IMG/VR virus record: IMGVR_UViG_3300035698_021020 | Span: 8,391-72,390 of that record | Source of the DNA: a virus | Reading direction: 5' to 3' (one strand) | DNA length: 64,000 nucleotides | Shown here: piece by piece, positions 2,161-56,502 of the stretch | How positions within the stretch are numbered: position 1 is the stretch's first letter | Layout of the letters: each line of letters begins with the position of its first letter | Program-made: the position numbers and the translations under genes | The notes under the pieces: model-generated | The model's input: only the letters and a program-made list of their open reading frames with translations | Databases searched by the model: none | What the model was told of the DNA's origin: nothing

Positions 2161-3845
2161 AATTATTAGAAGTATCATATAGAAATCTTATTTCCTACGG
2201 AAATATTATGCAGACCTTTAAATTTGGCGATGAACCTAGATTAGTATTAGTCGAAGGACCAAATGGCGCAGGTAAATCCTCAATTAAAGAAGCTCTTACT
2301 GTTTCAGTTTATGGCAAGTCTGCAATTCGAGCAATGAAGGATATCCCAAATTGGATAAACAAAAATGCATATACTCGTATTAAATTTCTAACTAACTCTG
2401 GAGAACTTGTAGATATTGAACGTGGAATAGCACCAAATTTTAGTAATATAATTATTGATGGTGTTCCATTTAATCTTCCAGATAAACGAAAAGTTGATGA
2501 ATTTATAGAAGACGATTTGGCTAGAATTCCATTTAGCGTTTTCTGTAACACAATAAGTTTATCATTTGACGACTTTAAATCATTTGTGAATCTCAATAGA
2601 GTAGATAAAGAGAAAATTGTTGATAGAATATTTGGAATTGATATTCTTTCTAAGATGAGAACAGTAGTTAAACAAGAGCTTAGCGACAGTAAGAAAGAAT
2701 TAGCTACCGTTAATGCACAAATATTAAAAGATAGATCTACACTACAAAGATCTATGGCCCAATTAGACGAACTAAAGGAGAAACTTACTCAAAAGAAAGA
2801 TAAAGAAGCAGAGGACTTAAGAAATAAGATAAAGGCTGACTCTATTTCTTTAGAGACGCTGGCCAAAACTAACGACCTGAAAAAGAACGAAGTTCAATTG
2901 GCCATAGAAAAAACATTATCTTATAGAGATAGTGCAAAGGCAATACAATTAAAAGTAGCACAAGTAGATAAGAATCTAGATCTATATAAGAATAACACTT
3001 GTCCACATTGCTTAAATGACTTAACATCTAATACCTCAAATCAAATTAAGGAAACTTTAGAATTAAAAAGAGAAACACTTCGAGATAATATTCCAGAAAT
3101 AGCTAAATCGTTTAAATTAGCGAAAGCTGAATTAGAGGAATTAATTGCATCTCAAAATATATCAAATGCTGATTATCATAGAGCTCAAGCCGATATTTCT
3201 AATTTGAAATCTGATTTAGCGTCTATTATTGCTAATATGGTAACTGATGAAACTGAATCTATTCAGAGCATCATTGATTCAATAAGTGGAGATATTGATT
3301 CTAGTTCTGTTGATCATGAGCATAAGAGCGAAGAAGTAGAGCTATATTCGACTCTAGATATACTCCTGTCTGAGTCTGGTATAAAGAAAACATTAATTAA
3401 TAAGATTATACCAACTCTAAATAATAGGATCGCTGCCATATCTGAAAGACTTGAATTCAAATTCTCTTTTTCATTCGATAGTAATTTTGACCCGACTGTT
3501 AATTATCTTGGAATGGATATTCCTCCTTCTGCTTTATCTACTGGACAAAGGAAAAAGATGAACTTAATTGTTCTTCTAGCATTCATCGAAATAATTAAGA
3601 TGAAGCATGGCAAAATGAATATTATGTTCTTAGATGAGATATTCAGCTCATTAGATAAGAATAATGTGTATATGGCCATGGAAATACTTAGGGAGTATGC
3701 AAACAAATATAAAATGACCATATTTGTTGTATCACATGAGACATTACCAGAAGAATTCTTTGATACTAGAATTGTAGTTAAAGAGAGAAACGGCTTCTCA
3801 GAAATGGAAGTGATTGAAACAGTTAATCAAATCGCTAAACCTTGA
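2157..3845 (+). CDS. gp46: recombination ATPase subunit (Rad50/SbcC-like, T4 gp46)
   Basis: Walker A GPNGAGKS, coiled coil with CPHC zinc hook, signature LSTGQ, Walker B FLDEIF, VSH. Confidence 0.93.
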   Translation: MKLLEVSYRNLISYGNIMQTFKFGDEPRLVLVEGPNGAGKSSIKEALTVSVYGKSAIRAMKDIPNWINKNAYTRIKFLTNSGELVDIERGIAPNFSNIIIDGVPFNLPDKRKVDEFIEDDLARIPFSVFCNTISLSFDDFKSFVNLNRVDKEKIVDRIFGIDILSKMRTVVKQELSDSKKELATVNAQILKDRSTLQRSMAQLDELKEKLTQKKDKEAEDLRNKIKADSISLETLAKTNDLKKNEVQLAIEKTLSYRDSAKAIQLKVAQVDKNLDLYKNNTCPHCLNDLTSNTSNQIKETLELKRETLRDNIPEIAKSFKLAKAELEELIASQNISNADYHRAQADISNLKSDLASIIANMVTDETESIQSIIDSISGDIDSSSVDHEHKSEEVELYSTLDILLSESGIKKTLINKIIPTLNNRIAAISERLEFKFSFSFDSNFDPTVNYLGMDIPPSALSTGQRKKMNLIVLLAFIEIIKMKHGKMNIMFLDEIFSSLDKNNVYMAMEILREYANKYKMTIFVVSHETLPEEFFDTRIVVKERNGFSEMEVIETVNQIAKP

Positions 3846-3863
3846 TCACTATTTAGTGTATAA
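3837..3863 (+). promoter_or_regulatory. putative early/middle promoter AAAC-N17-GTATAA
   Basis: One of 8 copies of AAAC-N16/17-GTA(T/G)AA, each just upstream of a gene start. Confidence 0.6.
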
Positions 3864-3884
3864 AATATAAAGACTTACTGAAAT

Positions 3885-4748
3885 ATGATAATGCATCATG
3901 GCGAGACATTCGCTGACGTATACCAAAATAGTTTAATTGAGTTGATGACTGATCCAGAATATCATACTCGACCTAGAGATATGTTAGTAAATGAAAACAC
4001 TAATGTTGCTCTTCAAATAGGTAATCCATTATCTTGTTTATATAATACAGAGGCTAGATCTTCTATGAAGAAATATATAGCTGCAGAACTTCTATGGTAT
4101 TTCATGGGTAGGCGAGAGGTAGAGTTCATTTCCAAATATGCTAAATTTTGGAAAAGCATAGATAATGGTGATGGAACAGTAAATTCAGCATATGGTTATC
4201 TACTATTTAAAGAATATGGATTAACTGGAATTACTCAATATGAATGGGCATACAATTCATTAATTGAAGATAAAGATACCAGACAAGCTATTATGCATTT
4301 CAATATGCCTAAACACCAATATGAAGGAAATAAAGATTTTGTTTGTACTTTAACTGGAATATTCCAAATAAGAGACAATTGTTTGAATTTGAGTATAAAC
4401 ATGAGAAGTAATGATGTTATTTGGGGATTACCCACGGATCTCGTATTCTTTGTAATTTTACAAAGCCAAATGCTTTCTCATTTAAAAACAAAATACCCAG
4501 ATCTTAAAATGGGATCATATACTCATTATGCTCATTCATACCACATTTATGAAAAGCATTTTGAACAAGTCACAGACATGATAAATTTACCATTCAAATC
4601 AGAAAATATTCCATCAGTTGGATTAGACCTTATTGATGTTCATGGTAATGCTACATCAGATTTTCAATTATTATTTAAAAACTATGAAGAGACTGATACT
4701 CTTTATGAAGACCCACTATACTCATGGATACATCAAAACTTAAAGTAA
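3885..4748 (+). CDS. thymidylate-synthase-fold enzyme, dCMP hydroxymethylase (T4 gp42)-like
   Basis: NSAYG, DTRQA, catalytic DFVCT, RSNDVIWGLPTD with Asp at the E. coli TS Asn177 position, HSYHIYE. Confidence 0.8.
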   Translation: MIMHHGETFADVYQNSLIELMTDPEYHTRPRDMLVNENTNVALQIGNPLSCLYNTEARSSMKKYIAAELLWYFMGRREVEFISKYAKFWKSIDNGDGTVNSAYGYLLFKEYGLTGITQYEWAYNSLIEDKDTRQAIMHFNMPKHQYEGNKDFVCTLTGIFQIRDNCLNLSINMRSNDVIWGLPTDLVFFVILQSQMLSHLKTKYPDLKMGSYTHYAHSYHIYEKHFEQVTDMINLPFKSENIPSVGLDLIDVHGNATSDFQLLFKNYEETDTLYEDPLYSWIHQNLK

Positions 4749-8606: not shown

Positions 8607-10190
8607 ATGGCAGAAATAACTCTAGACTTCAAACCGAGGAAACAACAAAAGGAAATGCTTGCCTTTACTACTTCTGCCATAAATAGTGGTAAGAAGTTTA
8701 TTATGATTGATGCACCAACGGGTACAGGCAAATCGTTCTTTGCGATTATGCTTTCTCATTGGTATACTAAGACTTATAATAAGAAAGCTAAGATTGATAT
8801 CCTGACCAACACCAAGCTCCTTCAGGACCAATATGTTGATGATTTCGAATTTGCTGCTAATCTAAAAGGAAACAATAATTATTACTGTGGGAAACACAAA
8901 ATAAATTGTGGAGAAGCTAAATTGATTAATAGAGCAAATAATGACCATTGTAAAATATGTCCTCATAGAATTGCTCAAAATAAATTCACAAGAAGTCCAT
9001 TAAGCCTTACTAATTTCCATCTAGCTACGTCATATATGATGTATCTTCCACAGTTTTTTCTTGAACGAGATGCTCGACTTCTAATTATTGATGAAGCAAA
9101 TATGTTTGAAGAGACTTTTTGTGACTTCATTGCTTCTACTTTGTCAGAAAGGAGTTTAAAATTAATGGATATTTGGGAACCATTTATGGAAAGTGATATA
9201 TCTCGATTAGATACTCTTCCAGCTATTTCTGGATATATTGCAGATGTAGTTATTCCATTGATTGATAATAAGATTGAAGAACACTTATCTGGAGTTAAGA
9301 ATCTCAGAGGTAAAAAGAAATTAGATGCGGCTAAGAAAGCAGACTTCATAGATAAAATCAAATGTAAATATGACAGATTTGTAGGCGATTCTGAGAATTA
9401 CAAAACAAATTGGATATTTGAAAAAGATCTAGATAATCACGGTAAAACTAGAATTACGGTTGAACCTATATGGGGAAACATTTATCTAAAAGAAAACTTT
9501 TGGGATAAATACGATCATATCGTCCTAATGTCGGGTACCATATTAGACCAGGAGTTATTCTCGTTTATTATGGGAATACCAAATGAAGAATCTACATATC
9601 TATCTTTGGATTGTCCATTTGATGCTGAGAAGCGACCAGTGATCTACGCTAAATTTGGTAAAATGTCATATTATGATAAAGCCGAAACTTTTAAAATAGC
9701 TGCACCAGTAATCGCAAATATTTTAAAAAAGAATGCAAAGCACAAAGGAATAATTCATACATCTACTTATCAGTTCAGTAAGTGGATACAGGAACAAGTC
9801 AAAGACAAGCGACTTCTATTTCATACTACTGCTACTAGAGAAAAAACACTTAAGAAACATATCGTAAGTCAAAAGGAGACAGTTATAGTTTCTCCATCCA
9901 TGATAAATGGAATTGACCTTAAAGATGAATTATCTAGATTTCAGATAATTTTAAAAGTACCTTTTCCTAATCTTATGAGTAAGAGAATAAAGAGGAGACT
10001 TGAAACTAAACCTGAATGGTATAATTGGAAAGCTCTTGCTGATTTACTTCAAGCATATGGCAGATCAATTAGAAATAGTACAGATTGGGCAGAAACATAT
10101 ATTTTGGATTCATGCTTTGATCAAATACGGTATAATGCACCACAATATTTCAAAGACGCATTAAAGATCAAAACACTACCTAAGAAATGA
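8607..10190 (+). CDS. DinG/Rad3-family SF2 helicase
   Basis: DAPTGTGKS, LQDQY, Cys cluster, IIDEAN, MSGT, GIDL, QAYGRSIR...D. Confidence 0.88.
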   Translation: MAEITLDFKPRKQQKEMLAFTTSAINSGKKFIMIDAPTGTGKSFFAIMLSHWYTKTYNKKAKIDILTNTKLLQDQYVDDFEFAANLKGNNNYYCGKHKINCGEAKLINRANNDHCKICPHRIAQNKFTRSPLSLTNFHLATSYMMYLPQFFLERDARLLIIDEANMFEETFCDFIASTLSERSLKLMDIWEPFMESDISRLDTLPAISGYIADVVIPLIDNKIEEHLSGVKNLRGKKKLDAAKKADFIDKIKCKYDRFVGDSENYKTNWIFEKDLDNHGKTRITVEPIWGNIYLKENFWDKYDHIVLMSGTILDQELFSFIMGIPNEESTYLSLDCPFDAEKRPVIYAKFGKMSYYDKAETFKIAAPVIANILKKNAKHKGIIHTSTYQFSKWIQEQVKDKRLLFHTTATREKTLKKHIVSQKETVIVSPSMINGIDLKDELSRFQIILKVPFPNLMSKRIKRRLETKPEWYNWKALADLLQAYGRSIRNSTDWAETYILDSCFDQIRYNAPQYFKDALKIKTLPKK

Positions 10191-12119: not shown

Positions 12120-12656
12120 ATGGAGAATAGTAAAACAATAACTGATTTCCTAGACAAGGAATATCGAGACTATGCAGTTTATGTTCTTGAGGAACGAGCT
12201 ATTCCATCTGTAATTGATGGATTTAAGCCAACTCAAAGAAAAATCATTTATATTGCAGATAAAGTCTGGAAGAATGGAAAAGAGAAGCCTTTGAAGGTAT
12301 TCCAACTTGCAGGTAGAGTTGCAGCAGATGCTAAGTACCATCATGGCGACTGTCTTGATCCAGATACTGAGATATTATTAAGTGACGGTTCATATATCAC
12401 AATATGTGAATGGTTTGAAAAATATCGAGATACTAAACTTAAAGTTTTAGCATTTGATGAATCTACTGATAAATTTGTAGAAGCAATCGGTCATTCTCCT
12501 AGGATAGGTCAAGTTACTGATCTTGAGTATGAAATTGAGATGGAAGACGGTAGCATATTCAAATGCACAAACAATCATCCGTTCTTAACTCAGCGTGGAT
12601 GGATTAAAGCTAAAGATTTAGAGGAAGACGACGACATAATAAATTTAAAATCATAA
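12120..12656 (+). CDS. gp52: topoisomerase II gp52 N-extein (77 aa) fused to split intein IntN (101 aa)
   Basis: RAIPSVIDGFKPTQRK...YHHGD followed by intein block A CLDPDTEILLSDG (from 12351) and block B CTNNHPFLT; ends with acidic DLEEDDDII. Confidence 0.92.
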   Translation: MENSKTITDFLDKEYRDYAVYVLEERAIPSVIDGFKPTQRKIIYIADKVWKNGKEKPLKVFQLAGRVAADAKYHHGDCLDPDTEILLSDGSYITICEWFEKYRDTKLKVLAFDESTDKFVEAIGHSPRIGQVTDLEYEIEMEDGSIFKCTNNHPFLTQRGWIKAKDLEEDDDIINLKS

Positions 12657-12708: not shown

Positions 12709-13644
12709 ATGGAATTAAAATGCGATAAATGCAACATAATGTATAATAATAGCCCATATCTAAATACTAATAGAATTAATAATGATCCTATTAGATTTCT
12801 ACATACATGTAAGGAATGTAGAAAAATTAAGAAATGTGGAAACTGCAATAATGAATTTAAACATTATCAGAATCAAACATGTTCTAAGAAATGTGCAGCT
12901 ATTCTAAAGGAGAAAACATATATGTTAACACAGGGAGCTCCACATAATTTTTCTAAGAATTCGAAATCTAAAATTAGAATACAATTAGAATTACTAGAAA
13001 ATGAAGGAATATCTAATGTTTTTCAAAGGGATACAGTAAAGGCTGCAATTAAAGCCACTATGATGACAAGATATGGTGTAGACAATATATCGAAATCTGA
13101 AGATATTAAAATTAAAAAGAAAGAAACTCTTCGTCAAACGTTAATTGATAATCCTGATCTATTTAAGAACAAATGGTGGGAGAATCATAATAGATTTATA
13201 AATGACATAGGATATGATCCAAGATTGAGTATATTTGGAAAAGCGTCGATTGAATCAATGCTAGTATTTAATCCAATATCTAAATTATGCACATCACTTG
13301 GAATACTAGAATCTGATATATATGTAGGACATGATACTAAATCTGAATATTTTATTAATATTGGTACTAAAACATATTTCTATGATTTCTGTATTAGATC
13401 TAAGAATATAATAATCGAATATCATGGTGTCGGATTTCATGCAAATCCTACGTGGGAATTGACTAAACTAAATAAATGGAGATCTGCATTTACAAATGAG
13501 ACCTCAAGTGAGAATATTAGAAAGACTAAAATAAAAAATAATGCAGCTATTAATAAAGGATTCAAGATTCTTGAAATATGGAGTGATTCCAATATAGATG
13601 ACAATATTAATCTGTGTAAAGCATTTATAAACGCTAACATATGA
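12709..13644 (+). mobile_element. free-standing homing endonuclease ORF (Vsr-like PD-(D/E)XK with zinc ribbons) inside the split intein locus
   Basis: CxxC pairs, RYGVDNISKS motif, C-terminal YDFCI..IIIEYHGVGFH...GFKILEIW; stop overlaps the IntC start (ATGA). Confidence 0.82.
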
Positions 13645-14885
13645 AAATAAAATCTATTAAAATAAACAATCTAGAATCTCCTAAGAAATTCTATGATATA
13701 ACCGTAGATAAGCATCACAATTTTGTAATTGGACGCAAATCTAAAATAGTGACACATAATTCATCATTGAATGGAGCTATTATAACCATGGCTCAGTCAT
13801 TTAAGAACTCTATGCCTGTCCTTCAATCAATTGGACAATATGGATCATTACGATCTCCAGAAGCAGGAGCCCCAAGATATGTATCTACTAAACTTCATGA
13901 GAACTTCAGACAGATCTACATGGATTTTGAATTGCTTACTCCAACTTATGATGAAGGCGATGAGATAGAACCAGAATATTTTCTTCCTATTATTCCAACT
14001 GTGTTACTGAATGGGAGTTCAGGAATAGCGGTAGGGTTCGCAACTAATATCTTAAATAGAAATCCAATAGTTTTAATTGACTGTTGCCTAAAGGAATTGA
14101 CTGGAAAGAGATTTAATGAGCCTGTTCCATGGTACAATGGATACAATGGAGTTGTGCATAAAGATACAGCATCTGGCTCATGGATATTTAGCGGAAGATG
14201 GAATGCTAAAAATACAACTACTGTTGATATATCTGAACTTCCACCATCTATGACATATGAGAAGTATGACACATATCTTTCAAACAAAGAAGATCTTAGA
14301 GCTATTACGAGTTATGCGAACAGAGGTAAAGGTTCTATTGATTATGAAGTGAAGTTCTCTAGAAGCGAATTAGCTAGATTAACGACAAGTGATAGACTAA
14401 CTCGTTTATTGAAGATGGAAGAAAAACAATCTGAGAATCTAACTGTCTTAGATGAGAATAAGAAACTGAAAATCTTCAAAAGCGCATCAGAGATAATCAA
14501 ATACTTTGTTGCCTTTAGATTGAAATATTATGATAAGCGAAAAATTCATTTAATTGAGAAACTCAATAGAGAATTATTGATGCTTACAAATAGAGCTAGA
14601 TTCATTAAAGACATTATCGATAGGAAACTGAAAATCAATAATGTTCCTAAGCGAACTATAGTTCTTTATTTGGAAACCGCAGATTATGATGAAGTAGATA
14701 GATCATATAACTATTTGCTTTATATGCCAATTCACTCACTAACTAAGGAAAGATATGAAGAGATCTTATCTGAAGTAGGAGATAAGAAGGTAGAATTAGT
14801 AGCAACAAAAAAGCTGAAACCTGCTACGATGTATGAAACAGATCTTAAAGATCTCAGATCAGCACTAATTAAGAAATACAAATGA
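13641..14885 (+). CDS. gp52: split intein IntC (40 aa) fused to topoisomerase II gp52 C-extein
   Basis: MKIKSIKI...FYDITVDKHHNFV...VTHN|S (junction 13760/13761), then GQYGSL, catalytic APRY, EPEYFLPIIPTVLLNG..GIAVG. Confidence 0.92.
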   Translation: MKIKSIKINNLESPKKFYDITVDKHHNFVIGRKSKIVTHNSSLNGAIITMAQSFKNSMPVLQSIGQYGSLRSPEAGAPRYVSTKLHENFRQIYMDFELLTPTYDEGDEIEPEYFLPIIPTVLLNGSSGIAVGFATNILNRNPIVLIDCCLKELTGKRFNEPVPWYNGYNGVVHKDTASGSWIFSGRWNAKNTTTVDISELPPSMTYEKYDTYLSNKEDLRAITSYANRGKGSIDYEVKFSRSELARLTTSDRLTRLLKMEEKQSENLTVLDENKKLKIFKSASEIIKYFVAFRLKYYDKRKIHLIEKLNRELLMLTNRARFIKDIIDRKLKINNVPKRTIVLYLETADYDEVDRSYNYLLYMPIHSLTKERYEEILSEVGDKKVELVATKKLKPATMYETDLKDLRSALIKKYK

Positions 14886-47711: not shown

Positions 47712-48734
47712 ATGCTTAGGTTTAAAATATCTGAGGACAAGAAAACCGTTAAGCTTGTTCATTTCGATCTGAATTCTGAACGGAGCCACCTAGTTTCTTA
47801 CTTCAAAAAGAAATCAAAGAAAGCTGACTTTAATGTGTTGGTTGAACGTGGCATATGGGATGGAATGGATTCATTCTTTAAAGACAACGAGATAAAAATA
47901 GGTCTATGGAAAGAGATCTATAATTTCGCTGACCAATACGGTTATGAAACTGAAATTGAAGGAATAGAGAAGCATCTAAATTTATCATTCACTAAGGAGA
48001 AGTATGACAAGTATGTTACTGATTTACTTGATGGAGTTACTGACGAATTTGGAGAGCCTCTAATTCCAAGAAATTATCAAGCTGAGTCTGCATATAGAGC
48101 AATAAAGTATAAATTCTGTACTCAAGAACTAGCAACTGCTGCTGGTAAGACCTTAATCTTCTACATATTCAATTCATTCCTTAGAGACGCTGGCAAAATT
48201 AACAAAAAGTCAAAGGCTTTGTTAATCGTTCCAAAGGCTGGATTAGTAAACCAGACAGCACTTGCATTTAACAGATTTACAAAGAAAGGGAGAGATCCAC
48301 TTAAGCTTTGCCTAATTGGTGGAAAGAATAAATTCGACCAGAAGATATTTGATGAATCTGAAATGATTATAGCCACTTATCAAAGCCTAAATCATTGGCC
48401 AGAGGAGAGGTTCAAGTCAATTTATTGTGTAGATGTTGATGAATGCTTGCATCCAAGCACTTTAATAACAATGTCGGATTATACTACTAAGTCTATCTCT
48501 AATATTAATATTGGAGATTCCATAATAACAAAGAATGATATGACTGGAGAACTAGAAGTCAGTGAAGTAGATAAAATACATCATAATTTATCTAGTGAAG
48601 AAAATATGTTTGACTTGGAGTTAGAGGATGGGACTAATATATTACTTACTGGTAATCATAGAATTAAATTAGTATCTGGTGAATATATTAGAGTTGATGA
48701 ATTAACTGGAGAAGAAGATATTATGTCCCTCTAA
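47712..48734 (+). CDS. uvsW: UvsW helicase N-extein (244 aa) fused to split intein IntN (96 aa)
   Basis: PRNYQ, LATAAGKT, IVP..LV.Q, ATYQSL, VDVDE then block A CLHPSTLITMSD (from 48444) and block B LTGNHRI. Confidence 0.92.
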   Translation: MLRFKISEDKKTVKLVHFDLNSERSHLVSYFKKKSKKADFNVLVERGIWDGMDSFFKDNEIKIGLWKEIYNFADQYGYETEIEGIEKHLNLSFTKEKYDKYVTDLLDGVTDEFGEPLIPRNYQAESAYRAIKYKFCTQELATAAGKTLIFYIFNSFLRDAGKINKKSKALLIVPKAGLVNQTALAFNRFTKKGRDPLKLCLIGGKNKFDQKIFDESEMIIATYQSLNHWPEERFKSIYCVDVDECLHPSTLITMSDYTTKSISNINIGDSIITKNDMTGELEVSEVDKIHHNLSSEENMFDLELEDGTNILLTGNHRIKLVSGEYIRVDELTGEEDIMSL

Positions 48735-48771
48735 TTTTATGAAGTTCTTTATATAAATAAAAGTAAAGGAA

Positions 48772-49586
48772 ATGACTAAACTCGAATTATATAACCATAT
48801 AAATACAAATAAGTCTAAATTTATTGCTATTTCCGGTAAAAGTATTGATGATAATTTAAAAATTGGTTAGAACAAGAGAAAATATCAATTCCAATACCTA
48901 AAATAACAGTAAATGCAGTATATGACTATCTTTTAAATAATAAAGGAAAATATTGTGCACTTTGTCGTTCTGAAAATAGATTCAAATCTTTAAATTTAGG
49001 ATATACTTTATTTTGTTCAAAGTCGTGTCTTCATAAATGGCGATCTATTAATATGTCTGGTAAAAACAATAATGTCTTTAAAATGTCAAATGAAGCCAAA
49101 TTAATCAGTAGAAAAAGGCAATCTGATACTATGAAACAACTTATATTAGATGGTAAGTTTACACCAACTGTAACAAATAGCTGGTGTAAATCTAGAATTA
49201 AAGTCAATATTTCTAGAAATAGTGAAGATATTATAATATCATGTCGATCATCTTGGGACGCATATTTTCAAATACATAATCCTACTTTTTTATATGAGAA
49301 TGTTAGAATACCATATGAATATTGTGGAAAATTCAAAGTTTATTTAGTAGATTTTGTTGATACTTCTAATAGAAAACTATATGAGATTAAACCAAGTGGA
49401 TTAATTGAGTCTAAAATGAATAGACTTAAAGAACATGCTGCTATTTCTTGGGCTAAATCAAATAATTATACCTTTGAATTTATTACTCAAAAATGGTTTA
49501 AGAAATACTTTGATATATCGAAAATAAAAACGCAGTCTGAATATACTAAAATTAAAAGATTACTATCCCAATTTCATGAAAATTAA
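48772..49586 (+). mobile_element. free-standing homing endonuclease (TnsA-N-like PD-(D/E)XK with zinc ribbon) inside the split intein locus; frameshifted near 48855-48870
   Basis: RSSWDAYF, YENVRIPY, YLVDF..YEIKP; upstream CALC/FCSKSC in the same frame; ATG 48772 is in a different frame that stops at 48870. Confidence 0.75.
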
Positions 49587-50538
49587 AAAAATAACAAAAT
49601 TAGGTAGGGCAGGGGAAGTTTTTAACTTGCGTATTAAAACACAATCTGATGCAAATCATAATTATTTTGCAAATGGAATAAATGTAGCAAATTGTCATAA
49701 AAGTAGAGGAAATGTAATCAAGAAGGTAATAGAATACTGTATAAACTGGAGATATATGCTTGGTTTATCTGGAACAGTAAAGCTTGATGAAAAATACTCC
49801 GATTATTTCAGAATGCTTGAAACAATTGGTCCATTGGTTCTTACTTTATCTGCGAAGCACCTAATTGACAATCAGTATTCTCCAAATATCAAAATTAAGC
49901 AAATTAAGCTGGCTTATGATAAAGATAGTGAATATTTGAAGAAATATTGGGACTTGAAGGCAAATGGGGCTTCCATGTACTCAAATAAGCGAGATTTTGG
50001 AGGAGATATGTTCGAATTGGAAAAACAATTCCTTTATAATAATCCAGAACGACTATCTTTCATAAATGAACTAGTTAGGCGTCTAAATAAGAACACATTA
50101 GTCTTATTTTCGAATATCAAAGATGAATATGGCAAAAAGATATATGAAGAGATTTCAAAATGGAATAAGCATACCTTTTATATCGATGGTGAAGTAGATA
50201 ATGATCTTCGTGAACAATATAAGGCAATAATGGAAGCAGAAGACAATGTTGTCATCGTTGCTTCATTTGGGACGTTCTCAACCGGTATTGATATTAAGAA
50301 AGTGTATCACATTATCTTTGCTGAATCAACCAAAGCTGAAATAACCATTCGCCAATCGATAGGTAGAGGAATGAGAGCGTTTAAGAATAAATTAGCAACA
50401 TATATTTGGGACATCGTCGATATGCTTGATGGATATATGGTCAAGCACTCAAAGGCTCGACTTAAGATCTATAAAGAGCAGAAATTTGAAGTATCTAATA
50501 TGGATGTAGATCTAACGAAGTTCAATAAGCCTAATTGA
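49576..50538 (+). CDS. uvsW: split intein IntC (39 aa) fused to UvsW C-extein
   Basis: MKIKKITKLG..EVFNL..NHNYFANGINVAN|CH (junction 49692/49693); GLSGT, FGTFSTGIDI, QSIGRGMR. Confidence 0.92.
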   Translation: MKIKKITKLGRAGEVFNLRIKTQSDANHNYFANGINVANCHKSRGNVIKKVIEYCINWRYMLGLSGTVKLDEKYSDYFRMLETIGPLVLTLSAKHLIDNQYSPNIKIKQIKLAYDKDSEYLKKYWDLKANGASMYSNKRDFGGDMFELEKQFLYNNPERLSFINELVRRLNKNTLVLFSNIKDEYGKKIYEEISKWNKHTFYIDGEVDNDLREQYKAIMEAEDNVVIVASFGTFSTGIDIKKVYHIIFAESTKAEITIRQSIGRGMRAFKNKLATYIWDIVDMLDGYMVKHSKARLKIYKEQKFEVSNMDVDLTKFNKPN

Positions 50539-53086: not shown

Positions 53087-54526
53087 ATGGAAGACAATTC
53101 TAAACTACTTAAGAAGCTCGATCTAAAGCAAAATGCGATCAAGCTTCTTATCAACTCTATTTATGGCGCATTTGGAAACAAGTGGTTCTACTTTTTCAAT
53201 AGAGACATAGCTCAATCAATTACTTTACAAGGACAAGATTTAATTAAATTCAGTATTAAAGCTGCTAATCATTATTTCTACAATAAGTGGCACCTCGATA
53301 CTGAAGTTCATAAGTTATTAGGTATAGACCATTACAAAATCAATAAAATTGATTATGATGCATCGATTTATAGTGATACAGATTCAGTATATGTTCAATT
53401 TGATTCTGCTATTGCTTCAATAGAAGGATTTGACTATACTGATATTGAAAAAGGTCTTGAAATATGTATTGCTCTAGATAGATATCGAATAGCTCAGTAT
53501 TTTACTGATTGCTTTGATAAGTACAGCAAATTATTCAACACAAAAAACCGTCTTAATCTTGAATTAGAGAATTTATCAGAATCTGGAATATGGTTAGCCA
53601 AAAAGAATTATGCAATTAAAGTTGCATATGAACCTAATGCAAACTTTGCAGTATTGCCTCCAAAGGACAGATATATGATAATTAAAGGATTGGAACCAGT
53701 TAAGAGTTCATATCCAACTTGGGCTAGAACGAAATTAAAGGAACTAACTGAATATATGGTGAAAATGGGTAAAACCCTTAATATTGAGGAGGACCTTATG
53801 CCTAAACTCAAGGAACTTGAAGAAGAATTTCAAAATGTTCCTCACCATGAAGCATCATTCAATTTCAAAATTCGAGTTTACAATAAGTATATTGAGAGTG
53901 AAAAAGAGCTTCGACTACTGAAGGGTATTCCAATATATTCTAGAGCGGCAGCTTATTACAATCACAGATTACTTCAAACTGGTTTAAATAAGAAATATAG
54001 CTTACTTCGTGAAGGTGATAAAATCAAGTATTATTTTTGTGAACAAAATGAAAATGATTTTGAGATCTTTGCGTATCATCCAAGTAAATTTCCAGACGAA
54101 ATAGTTCCTCCATTGGATCGTACGAAGCAATTCTTTGCATTGATTGTGGAACCAATGAATAGAATATTAACAGCTATGAGAATGAGTTCACTAGATGAAG
54201 ATCTAAAACGAGCTGTTCCATATGTGAATACTAAAACTAAGAAGGTATTAACTGATGCTGATTTGTTTCCACTTTACATCATCAATATAGAATCCTTAGA
54301 ATATGTAGAAGTACCTGAGAAATTCTGGAAAATTATTGGAAATCCTAATGTCGAAGTTCCTGATGAATATTATGAAGAATATCTTTCAGTCATCACTAAA
54401 TATGGTTTAAATTCCGCAATAGTCACTAAAATCGAACTTCCAAAATACCTTAAGCGGCTTGAACGTAAAGCTGAGCGTCTTGCTAAAAAAGAAGAAGAAG
54501 CTAAGTTAGCATTACAAAATGGATAA
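53087..54526 (+). CDS. gp43: family B DNA polymerase, C-terminal subunit only (split gp43)
   Basis: Motif B KLLINSIYG at residues 19-27, motif C YSDTDS, KKNY, KGLE; no exonuclease domain or motif A. Confidence 0.88.
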   Translation: MEDNSKLLKKLDLKQNAIKLLINSIYGAFGNKWFYFFNRDIAQSITLQGQDLIKFSIKAANHYFYNKWHLDTEVHKLLGIDHYKINKIDYDASIYSDTDSVYVQFDSAIASIEGFDYTDIEKGLEICIALDRYRIAQYFTDCFDKYSKLFNTKNRLNLELENLSESGIWLAKKNYAIKVAYEPNANFAVLPPKDRYMIIKGLEPVKSSYPTWARTKLKELTEYMVKMGKTLNIEEDLMPKLKELEEEFQNVPHHEASFNFKIRVYNKYIESEKELRLLKGIPIYSRAAAYYNHRLLQTGLNKKYSLLREGDKIKYYFCEQNENDFEIFAYHPSKFPDEIVPPLDRTKQFFALIVEPMNRILTAMRMSSLDEDLKRAVPYVNTKTKKVLTDADLFPLYIINIESLEYVEVPEKFWKIIGNPNVEVPDEYYEEYLSVITKYGLNSAIVTKIELPKYLKRLERKAERLAKKEEEAKLALQNG

Positions 54527-56001: not shown

Positions 56002-56502
56002 TTGGCAAAAGCGAGGCAAATACAGCAGTTTCTTAAGCCTCAGCGAGGTAGAGTCCGCCAGGGTTACTTTACACCAATTAATCCAGAAAAATATAAAGGA
56101 GACTCATCAAATATCATATATCGATCAAGTTGGGAACTTAAGTTTCTACAATATTGTGATAATAATGATAAAGTATTAGAATATGTCGCTGAGCCAGTCG
56201 GAATACCATATTTTAACCCACTAAATAAGAAAACGAGTACATATTGGATAGACTGCTATATGAAAACTATCAATAGTGACGGTTCTAATACAGAATGGCT
56301 AATAGAAGTTAAACCAAACAAGTACTTAACTCCACCTAAGGAACCGCAAAGACTTACTGAGAAACAATTAAGAGCTTATGTTAAATATGCTAAAGCCTAT
56401 GCAGTCAACACTGCTAAGTTCGCTGCAGCTAGAGTATATGCACATGAACATAGAATGAGATTCGGAATTATAACTGAAAACTTTCTGTTTAATAAAGTGT
56501 AA
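56002..56502 (+). CDS. gp4: head completion nuclease (T4 gp4-like, TnsA-N fold)
   Basis: P.NPEKYKGD..NIIYRSSWE, IPY, Y..D, IEVKP, N.AK..AA, IITE. Confidence 0.85.
   Translation: MAKARQIQQFLKPQRGRVRQGYFTPINPEKYKGDSSNIIYRSSWELKFLQYCDNNDKVLEYVAEPVGIPYFNPLNKKTSTYWIDCYMKTINSDGSNTEWLIEVKPNKYLTPPKEPQRLTEKQLRAYVKYAKAYAVNTAKFAAARVYAHEHRMRFGIITENFLFNKV

Follow-up and report, generated by a model that had tools for sequence, protein, structure and literature searches.

We analysed a stretch of viral DNA 64,000 nucleotides (nt) long (the window), which lies within the 72,390-base IMG/VR virus record IMGVR_UViG_3300035698_021020 (CheckV completeness estimate, 28%). Our results support the conclusion that a split intein breaks its gene for the helicase UvsW at the DE|CH of motif II, and that the two halves flank a free-standing nuclease gene. 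In our judgement, the arrangement is likely to be a mobile cassette in motif II, made up of a class-1 intein split at the canonical site and a gene for a TnsA-like homing endonuclease in the gap. The uvsW locus occupies 47712-50538 of the + strand as three consecutive reading units. The open reading frames (ORFs) follow the order described for fractured genes by Dassa et al. (2009), i.e., an ORF ending in the N-terminal intein part (IntN), an endonuclease ORF, and an ORF beginning with the C-terminal intein part (IntC), all on one strand, with the endonuclease ORF frameshifted here. The features are as follows (aa, amino acids).

47712-48734, + strand: ORF of the N-extein plus IntN, 340 aa
47712-48443, + strand: uvsW N-extein, 244 aa, with Walker A TAAGKT, ending SIYCVDVDE (DE of motif II)
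48444-48734, + strand: IntN, 96 aa (48444-48731) plus the TAA stop (48732-48734), with block A CLHPST and block B TGNH
48772-48870, + strand: 5' part of the homing-endonuclease gene, a 32-aa ORF that carries the start codon and is out of frame with the main part
48855-48862, + strand: frameshift site of the endonuclease gene, T_TTA_AAA then A, with an A5 run at 48858-48862; a -1 shift joins the frames
48855-49586, + strand: endonuclease main frame, 243 open codons; its first ATG, at 49053, would give 177 aa (49053-49586)
49576-50538, + strand: ORF of IntC plus the C-extein, 320 aa
49576-49692, + strand: IntC, 39 aa, MKIKKITK..NHNYFANGINVAN, with block F NHNYFAN, ending NVAN
49693-50538, + strand: uvsW C-extein, 281 aa plus stop, starting CHKSRG (CH of motif II), with SGT and QSIGRGMR helicase motifs

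IntN starts CLHPSTLITM, the Cys1 codon being TGC at 48444-48446. The last codons of IntC are GCA for Ala (49687-49689) and AAT for Asn (49690-49692), followed by TGT for Cys+1 (49693-49695) and CAT for His, and the first 11 nt of IntC are shared with the end of the endonuclease ORF. A preliminary description of the locus had placed Cys1 at 48444 and the stop at 48732-48734, with a 39-aa IntC, a penultimate Ala, a Cys+1-His and exteins of 244 and 281 aa that sum to 525 aa, and all of this agrees with our coordinates. It had also noted that the His of block F (HNY) is retained, as the NHNYFAN of the window's IntC bears out.

The DE|CH break and the split intein

The two exteins were compared with known helicases. 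Against Pfam, the N-extein matched DEAD (2.7e-09) and ResIII (2.5e-08) and the C-extein matched Helicase_C (1.1e-07); UvsW_N scored 18.9 bits against a cut-off of 25.3. Among PDB sequences the best match of the N-extein was T4 UvsW (1rif/2oca, 5e-09), with residues 27-237 of the query aligned to UvsW 25-226, and the sole match of the C-extein was again T4 UvsW (2oca, 1.7e-22), with its residue 1, the Cys of CH, falling on UvsW 234. The N-extein alignment stops 7 residues before the break, at UvsW 226, and an ungapped extension carries it to 233; since the C-extein resumes at 234, nothing is missing or duplicated at DE|CH. The preliminary description had proposed that UvsW is broken in the DECH motif and that splicing would rebuild a protein of ~525 aa, and the T4 UvsW alignments of the two exteins indeed abut at that point. 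Among PHROG profiles, phrog_16259 (E 5.7e-39) matches the first ORF from residue 27 to 338 and so takes in IntN, and phrog_9690 (E 1.6e-57) matches the last ORF over residues 21-313; such scores lie far outside what chance would give.

The same cassette was found widely. A tblastn search with the N half showed that 14 of 1593 matching phage records also cover IntN, with the cassette at the same site, and these belong to the Salmonella phage S16 group, Proteus phage PM2, and Prevotella phages Lak-B2, Lak-B4, Lak-B7, and Lak-B8. From IMG/VR, 9 loci were collected through the C half and 55 through the IntN alignment. In 43 of the 55, the intein directly follows the ..DE of a UvsW-like N half (some of these are the same contigs as the 9 C-half loci, and some are near-identical to each other), and the other 12 are inteins in other host genes. 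The split form is present in 38 IMG/VR loci. Contiguous inteins at the same DE|CH site in related phages, a comparison that the preliminary description had proposed, are present in loci L014, L015, and L046.

The split-intein layout of uvsW is thus of a known kind that is common in phages, occurring in the deposited genomes of the cultured phages S16, STP4-a, and PM2, and the cassette is unremarked in the GenBank records of cultured phages. In S16 the annotation reads gp114 'DNA helicase', gp114.1 'hypothetical protein', and gp115 'UvsW', and the junctions are ..MMNDE|CFDGDT.. and ..AHN|CH..; those of Lak-B4, with TAG read as Gln, are ..IIDE|CCHPDT.. and ..ISN|CH... The S16 group (S16, STP4-a, CF-SP2, SEA1), PM2, and the four Lak-B phages share with the window the DE|CH site, homologous IntN and IntC, and a homologous nuclease between the halves (phmmer 1.8e-17 for S16 and 7.3e-32 for Lak-B4). 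They differ from it in detail, in that S16 has a penultimate His and block A CFDGDT and Lak-B4 has a penultimate Ser, whereas the window has Ala, and in that the nuclease ORFs of the S16 group and the Lak phages are unbroken while that of the window is frameshifted. A literature search that covered main texts and few subscription journals returned no publication on an intein in uvsW.

To compare catalytic residues we used alignments of IntN (A3) and IntC (A4), each with 31 sequences, i.e., the window and 30 distinct split relatives, identical pairs and L026 having been removed. All 31 IntN sequences share Cys1 and the Thr, Asn, and His of block B (TGNH), and the terminal Asn (N39), Cys+1 (C40), and His+2 are invariant in 31/31 of the IntC alignment; the window has every one of these residues. 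The profile of the IntN family matches solved inteins, the Ssp DnaB mini-intein (1mi8) at 2.5e-11 and also NrdJ-1, DnaX, gp41-1, and Npu DnaE (IntN, 4lx3_A, at 3e-4), and the profile of the IntC family matches the intein C-termini of KlbA (2jmz, 3.3e-4) and DnaX (7cfv, 1.4e-3). A word-based protein search with the IntC region returned only two proteins, one of them the window's own. The features by which class 1 inteins are recognised are found in the window, namely Cys1, block B Thr-x-x-His, a C-terminal Asn with Cys+1, similarity to known inteins, and an in-frame insertion; the helper penultimate His, common in that class but not obligatory, is Ala here.

We propose that two polypeptides would be made from this locus, an N-extein-IntN of 340 aa and an IntC-C-extein of 320 aa, and that IntN and IntC would then associate into one Hint fold. 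Protein trans-splicing by Cys1, Cys+1, and Asn39 would follow through an N-S shift, trans-thioesterification, and Asn cyclisation, yielding a contiguous 525-aa UvsW with its DECH box restored and releasing the intein halves. The endonuclease would at one time have cut intein-less alleles of uvsW and so driven the spread of the cassette, its gene here being most likely in decay.

This scheme has two close precedents. The Ssp and Npu DnaE split inteins are likewise class-1, with Cys1 and Cys+1, the same canonical split site, and a similar size of split; however, the halves of cyanobacterial DnaE are encoded at widely separated places in the genome and do not enclose an endonuclease gene, and the host is a bacterium rather than a phage. 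The second is the set of fractured genes described in the main text of Dassa et al. (2009; PMC2677866), gp41-1, NrdJ-1, and IMPDH-1 among others, in which split inteins accompany a free-standing endonuclease gene. The hosts given there are gp41 helicase, IMPDH, DnaE, NrdA, NrdJ, DNA ligase, and terminase, and the endonucleases are GIY-YIG or Vsr-like. The window's locus resembles these genes, as that text describes them, in its order on one strand, its phage origin, a host enzyme of DNA metabolism, and the overlap of the endonuclease and IntC frames. It differs in its host, since neither uvsW nor a topoisomerase appears in that main text, in its TnsA-like endonuclease, and in the upstream hairpin, of which we found none before the window's nuclease ORF (z +1.53).

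Splicing and the penultimate residue

Several points weigh against the splicing scheme proposed above. Taken alone, the window protein scores under the curated Pfam cut-offs for Hint (28.8 vs. 29.7 bits) and Intein_splicing. The usual helper, the penultimate His, is replaced by Ala, and at the block F position where KlbA (YDL) and DnaX (YDI) carry Asp, Asn stands in all 31 sequences (YNL; FNL in the window, 49621-49629). Judging by the alignment, this position would be block F position 4, and with Asn invariant there, these inteins lack a second helper in addition to the penultimate His, a departure that did not figure in the preliminary description. Association of the halves and splicing would be expected by analogy with class-1 split inteins. 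In addition, run X1, whose contigs reproduce the locus, is probably the source sample and so does not provide independent support, and since the record is only ~28% complete, a second, intact uvsW may exist elsewhere.

The missing helper residues could point to another role, in which the intein halves would only dock the two helicase pieces onto each other non-covalently. Such an arrangement would resemble the 'genes in pieces' NrdA reportedly found in phage Aeh1. Besides the penultimate Ala and the Asn at the block F Asp position, the existence of dead intein remnants in other split uvsW genes, e.g., locus L009 (at another site, with no terminal Asn or Cys), speaks for it. However, a docking device would not need Cys1, the terminal Asn, Cys+1, and block B TxxH, which are invariant in 31/31, and a break inside the DECH box would stay interrupted under a non-covalent joint.

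The penultimate residue itself was examined in the family. It could be counted in 41 of the 43 loci, those with an IntC (L041 and L045 end too early), and was Ser in 34, Ala in 7, and His in none. Beyond these loci, VAN|CH is also the ending in protein P0002 (67% identity across the IntC region), S16 carries His, and Lak-B4 carries Ser. The 31 split inteins were placed on a maximum-likelihood tree (which leaves out the contiguous inteins, duplicates, L026, S16, Lak-B4, and P0002), on which Ala requires at least 3 changes, in the window, in L025, and in L050/L051/L053, and every Ala lineage is nested among Ser bearers. Within the same 31, all 5 Ala codons are GCA, and Ser is encoded by TCN in 19 cases and by AGT in 7. 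For pairs among the Ala-bearing L050, L051, and L053, the ratio of nonsynonymous to synonymous substitution (dN/dS) of the intein was 0.09, 0.14, and 0.11, at dS of 0.28-0.47; purifying selection acts on Ala-bearing inteins. The preliminary description had called the penultimate Ala atypical, and this stands in so far as Ala departs from the general intein consensus, but it does not stand within the family of uvsW DE|CH inteins, in which Ala is normal and selected.

These results bear on the docking alternative. A penultimate Ser or Ala is the family norm (41/41 loci) and is under purifying selection. The contiguous mini-inteins L014 and L015 also carry Ala, with one 412-aa open frame running from Cys1 into the C-extein, and being contiguous they can provide a helicase only via cis-splicing. 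Splicing without a penultimate His is also said to occur, judging by the titles of reports by Chen et al. in 2000 and Sun et al. in 2005 (split Ssp DnaE intein). We therefore regard non-covalent docking as unlikely. A compensating residue was sought in the His at intein position 3 (CLHP), and the idea that it covaries with the missing penultimate His was rejected by a cross-table of position 3 and the penultimate residue (H/S 28, D/S 6, D/A 4, H/A 3).

A more far-reaching proposal, which we hold to be doubtful, is that the uvsW DE|CH inteins would form a distinct catalytic variety of class-1 split inteins that lacks both late-step helpers and is kept under purifying selection in many phages. 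If this were so, different assisting residues, or splicing that is slow or conditional, could time the appearance of active UvsW during infection, and these inteins would be a new orthogonal family of split-intein tools. Whatever their mechanism, dozens of natural split inteins with a penultimate Ser or Ala are candidates for protein-ligation tools.

The pieces of uvsW might also be the non-functional leftovers of a gene that is being lost. The frameshift in the intervening nuclease gene points to decay already in progress at the locus, and the record represents only ~28% of a genome. However, both halves of uvsW are open over their full length and keep the Walker A, SGT, and QxxGR motifs, and together they align end to end with T4 UvsW. 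Further, the two-piece form has been kept in dozens of divergent phages, cultured lytic ones included. Loss of the gene is, on these grounds, very unlikely.

The arrangement could, lastly, be an artefact of assembly or sequencing, with the IntN stop, the gap, or the whole order arising from a chimera or an error; the contig is metagenomic and of low depth (mean word depth in X1, ~5-7). Salt-lake metagenome runs carry the window stretch, no RNA run being listed among its carriers, and the Logan contigs of run X1 reproduce it at the IntN stop, throughout the gap, and at the site of the frameshift (0 other letters, 0 gaps). The extein/IntN junction is spanned by identical sequence in run X2, which comes from another study, and pieces are identical in three other studies (X2-X4). 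The preliminary description had stated that reads supporting a single contiguous ORF would overturn its reading; the X1 contigs keep the IntN stop and the gap, and no joints of intein-less or nuclease-less forms were found in the run contigs, a negative of little weight since contigs drop rare variants. The same architecture also recurs in 38 other split loci, and we consider an artefact to be the most improbable of these explanations. A split intein that restores UvsW by trans-splicing remains the reading we prefer.

The endonuclease gene in the gap

The main frame of the endonuclease gene encodes a Cys-rich N-terminal region and a TnsA-like PD-(D/E)xK catalytic domain. Sequence searches gave the PHROG phrog_15427 'endonuclease' as the best match (4.8e-30) and Pfam PF08722, Tn7_TnsA-like_N, at 21.8 bits, under the cut-off of 26.5; a sequence search of the PDB returned 0 hits at E up to 10. 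An AlphaFold2 (AF2) model was built on the relatives in the nuclease alignment (A2, 22 sequences), with a predicted local distance difference test (pLDDT) score of 93.9. Its best Foldseek match was TnsA (E 0.04, probability 0.99-1.0), and VIA-align placed TnsA (1t0f_A) first, with Z 9.9, a root-mean-square deviation of 3.5, and 142 aligned residues, the next entry having 6.2; Vsr (1cw0, Z 6.0) and I-Bth0305I (3r3p, Z 5.6) were both below TnsA. By its modelled fold, then, the nuclease is TnsA-like, as the preliminary description had proposed in calling it TnsA-N-like, although the Pfam score is sub-threshold. The motifs RSSW, YE, Y..DF, and E.KP, invariant in A2, are all in the window and fit an E...D...ExK nuclease core, and E148, D166, E177, and K179, invariant in the 22 sequences, are the putative catalytic residues.

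The likeness to TnsA of Tn7 (PDB 1t0f/1f1z) lies in the PD-(D/E)xK core and the E...D...ExK pattern. The two differ in that sequence identity is 11%, the window's nuclease lacks the C-terminal domain of TnsA and the Tn7 partners, it has a Cys-rich N-terminal region, and its context is homing rather than transposition. We found no publication on a TnsA-like endonuclease with a split intein, in a search that covered few subscription journals.

A feature that the preliminary description had missed is a -1 frameshift in the A5 run, from which we conclude that the nuclease gene is probably decaying. The closest relatives of the nuclease, in L030 (9.5e-80), L019, and L016, are each one open frame of 270-277 aa, and the 48772-48870 fragment corresponds to their N-termini; this fragment and the frame from 48855 line up with L030 at every residue only if a -1 shift at 48858-48862 is allowed. 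We think it fairly probable that this is a real inactivating mutation, and a sequencing error at low depth is a lesser possibility; the remainder goes to recoding or to the internal ATG at 49053.

In the last case the gene would not be a pseudogene, and either programmed recoding would throttle expression of the endonuclease or the 177-aa product from ATG 49053 would be the working enzyme. The site T_TTA_AAA does have the X_XXY_YYZ form of a slippery heptamer, and the catalytic core downstream of the shift is intact, with all invariant residues present. However, L030, L019, and L016, besides having one open frame, have no slippery sequence at the homologous place, and no stimulatory structure was found downstream of the frameshift site (z -0.11). 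The nuclease frameshift of L033 (3760-4843) lies elsewhere, also in an A run (A6), as random slippage mutations would predict. With no conserved slippery site and no downstream structure, a programmed -1 frameshift was rejected, and a working gene by either route is quite unlikely.

Nucleases of this type were also seen outside uvsW. In T4-like phages, the same family lies between two pieces of the large terminase gene, e.g., in Yersinia phage phiR1-RT (g166-g168; L072, 1621-4470), where the terminase is broken right after Walker B (..IYIDE|CVSKDT..), with a short IntN-like tail and a 199-aa nuclease. Thus, the same nuclease family accompanies breaks after 'DE' in two different ATPases. Elsewhere in the window, at 56002-56499, a free-standing gene for a 166-aa TnsA-like endonuclease, above the cut-off for PF08722 (3.6e-18), lies between primase-like and portal genes; its top PHROG match is phrog_218, and the 'head closure' label of that family is apparently wrong.

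Spread of the cassette and the gp52 locus

The cassette is spread among divergent phages, with presence/absence polymorphism. Lak-B1 and Lak-B4 have flanks 98.5% and 99.0% identical and differ at the cassette, with 63 nt in the former against 1717 nt in the latter, and Lak-B1 reads ..CDECHH.. uninterrupted. Intein and exteins also give discordant relationships. L013 has the intein closest to that of the window, the two sharing 59% of their intein residues against 36% and 29% of their extein residues, and the closest UvsW among those compared is L019, with 57% and 56% in the exteins and only 52% in the intein. In L050 and L051 the inteins are 90% identical against 53% and 63% for the exteins. 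Both this incongruence and the Lak-B polymorphism would be expected if the cassette homed into intein-less alleles, and the two lines of evidence are consistent with a homing function for the endonuclease, which on comparison of these loci may have cut uvsW itself.

Of the 38 split IMG/VR loci, 34 have a nuclease of the window's type in the gap between the halves (phmmer E from 1e-18 to 1e-80), mostly as one open frame; the count includes the frameshifted L033, and L021 and L022, which are in pieces under table 11. The other 4 are L013, with a 92-aa remnant, L043 and L044, with other ORFs in the gap, and L026 (3501-3924), in which a single stop codon parts IntN from IntC and there is no nuclease gene. 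L014 and L015 (both 3501-4736) and L046 have contiguous mini-inteins of ~140 aa. The relatives form a complete series that runs from an intact endonuclease gene through a frameshifted copy and a remnant to a lone stop codon and, at the far end, a contiguous mini-intein; the series illustrates the possible interconversion of split inteins and mini-inteins. The window itself is ordinary, being one more member of this kind with a decaying endonuclease gene.

Three further observations concern uvsW and its cassette in relatives. The nuclease gene of Lak-B4 (L002, 4380-5621) has 8 in-frame TAG codons readable as Gln; it is adapted to, or arose in, a TAG-recoded phage. In L009 (644-3149), uvsW is split at another site, before motif II, with a different endonuclease gene between the pieces; the first piece has an IntN-like tail without Cys1, and the second starts MKIKKITK.. 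and lacks the terminal Asn and Cys, so that by its residues L009 appears to be a dead intein remnant. In L010 (3944-5752), on the same contig as L013, the C half of uvsW is broken again downstream, with an IntN-like tail (..NLSENDDIDL..) and then a 317-aa ORF.

A second gene in the window is also fractured. The topoisomerase II gene gp52 has its N part with an IntN at 12120-12653, a nuclease at 12709-13641, and an IntC with the C part at 13641-14882, and its intein ends ..THN|S. The nuclease of this locus has 311 aa, and its model reached a pLDDT of 53.7 overall, better over residues 180-311. The C-terminal domain matched I-Bth0305I (3r3p_B) with Z 9.5 over 94/98 residues, NGO0050 with 9.3, Vsr with 9.0, and TnsA with 5.7, and a PDB sequence search with the nuclease gave chance matches only. 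In contrast to the uvsW-locus nuclease, it thus belongs with the I-Bth0305I/Vsr-like (EDxHD) family, the type described for fractured genes. The preliminary description had held that the nuclease types of the two loci differ, implying independent fractures, and the difference in type is upheld by the TnsA-like Z of 9.9 at uvsW against the I-Bth0305I-like Z of 9.5 at gp52 and by an hhalign probability of 2% between the two nucleases. The IntN parts of the two loci share 32% identity over 42 residues. Since the nucleases are of different types and the IntN parts only 32% alike, separate insertion events are the simplest reading. Both uvsW and gp52 join the phage DNA-metabolism genes that are kept in pieces by split inteins.

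Other features of the window were recorded. Phage genes adjoin the locus, including those for SbcCD, thymidylate synthase, topoisomerase II, capsid, portal, PhoH, and primase. A megablast search of the locus against phage records gave no match, and a scan for promoters and terminators found 19 promoter-like sites against 18.1 expected and nothing usable. A second helicase, at 8607-10187, is of a different type (Helicase_C_2). No Pfam DNA_pol_A was found in the record. A family B DNA polymerase ORF lies at 53087-54523; it starts at position 147 of Pfam DNA_pol_B and matches only 502-840 of the 856 positions of phrog_262. The gene upstream of it is on the other strand, so this polymerase too may be fragmented and have its N part at another place.

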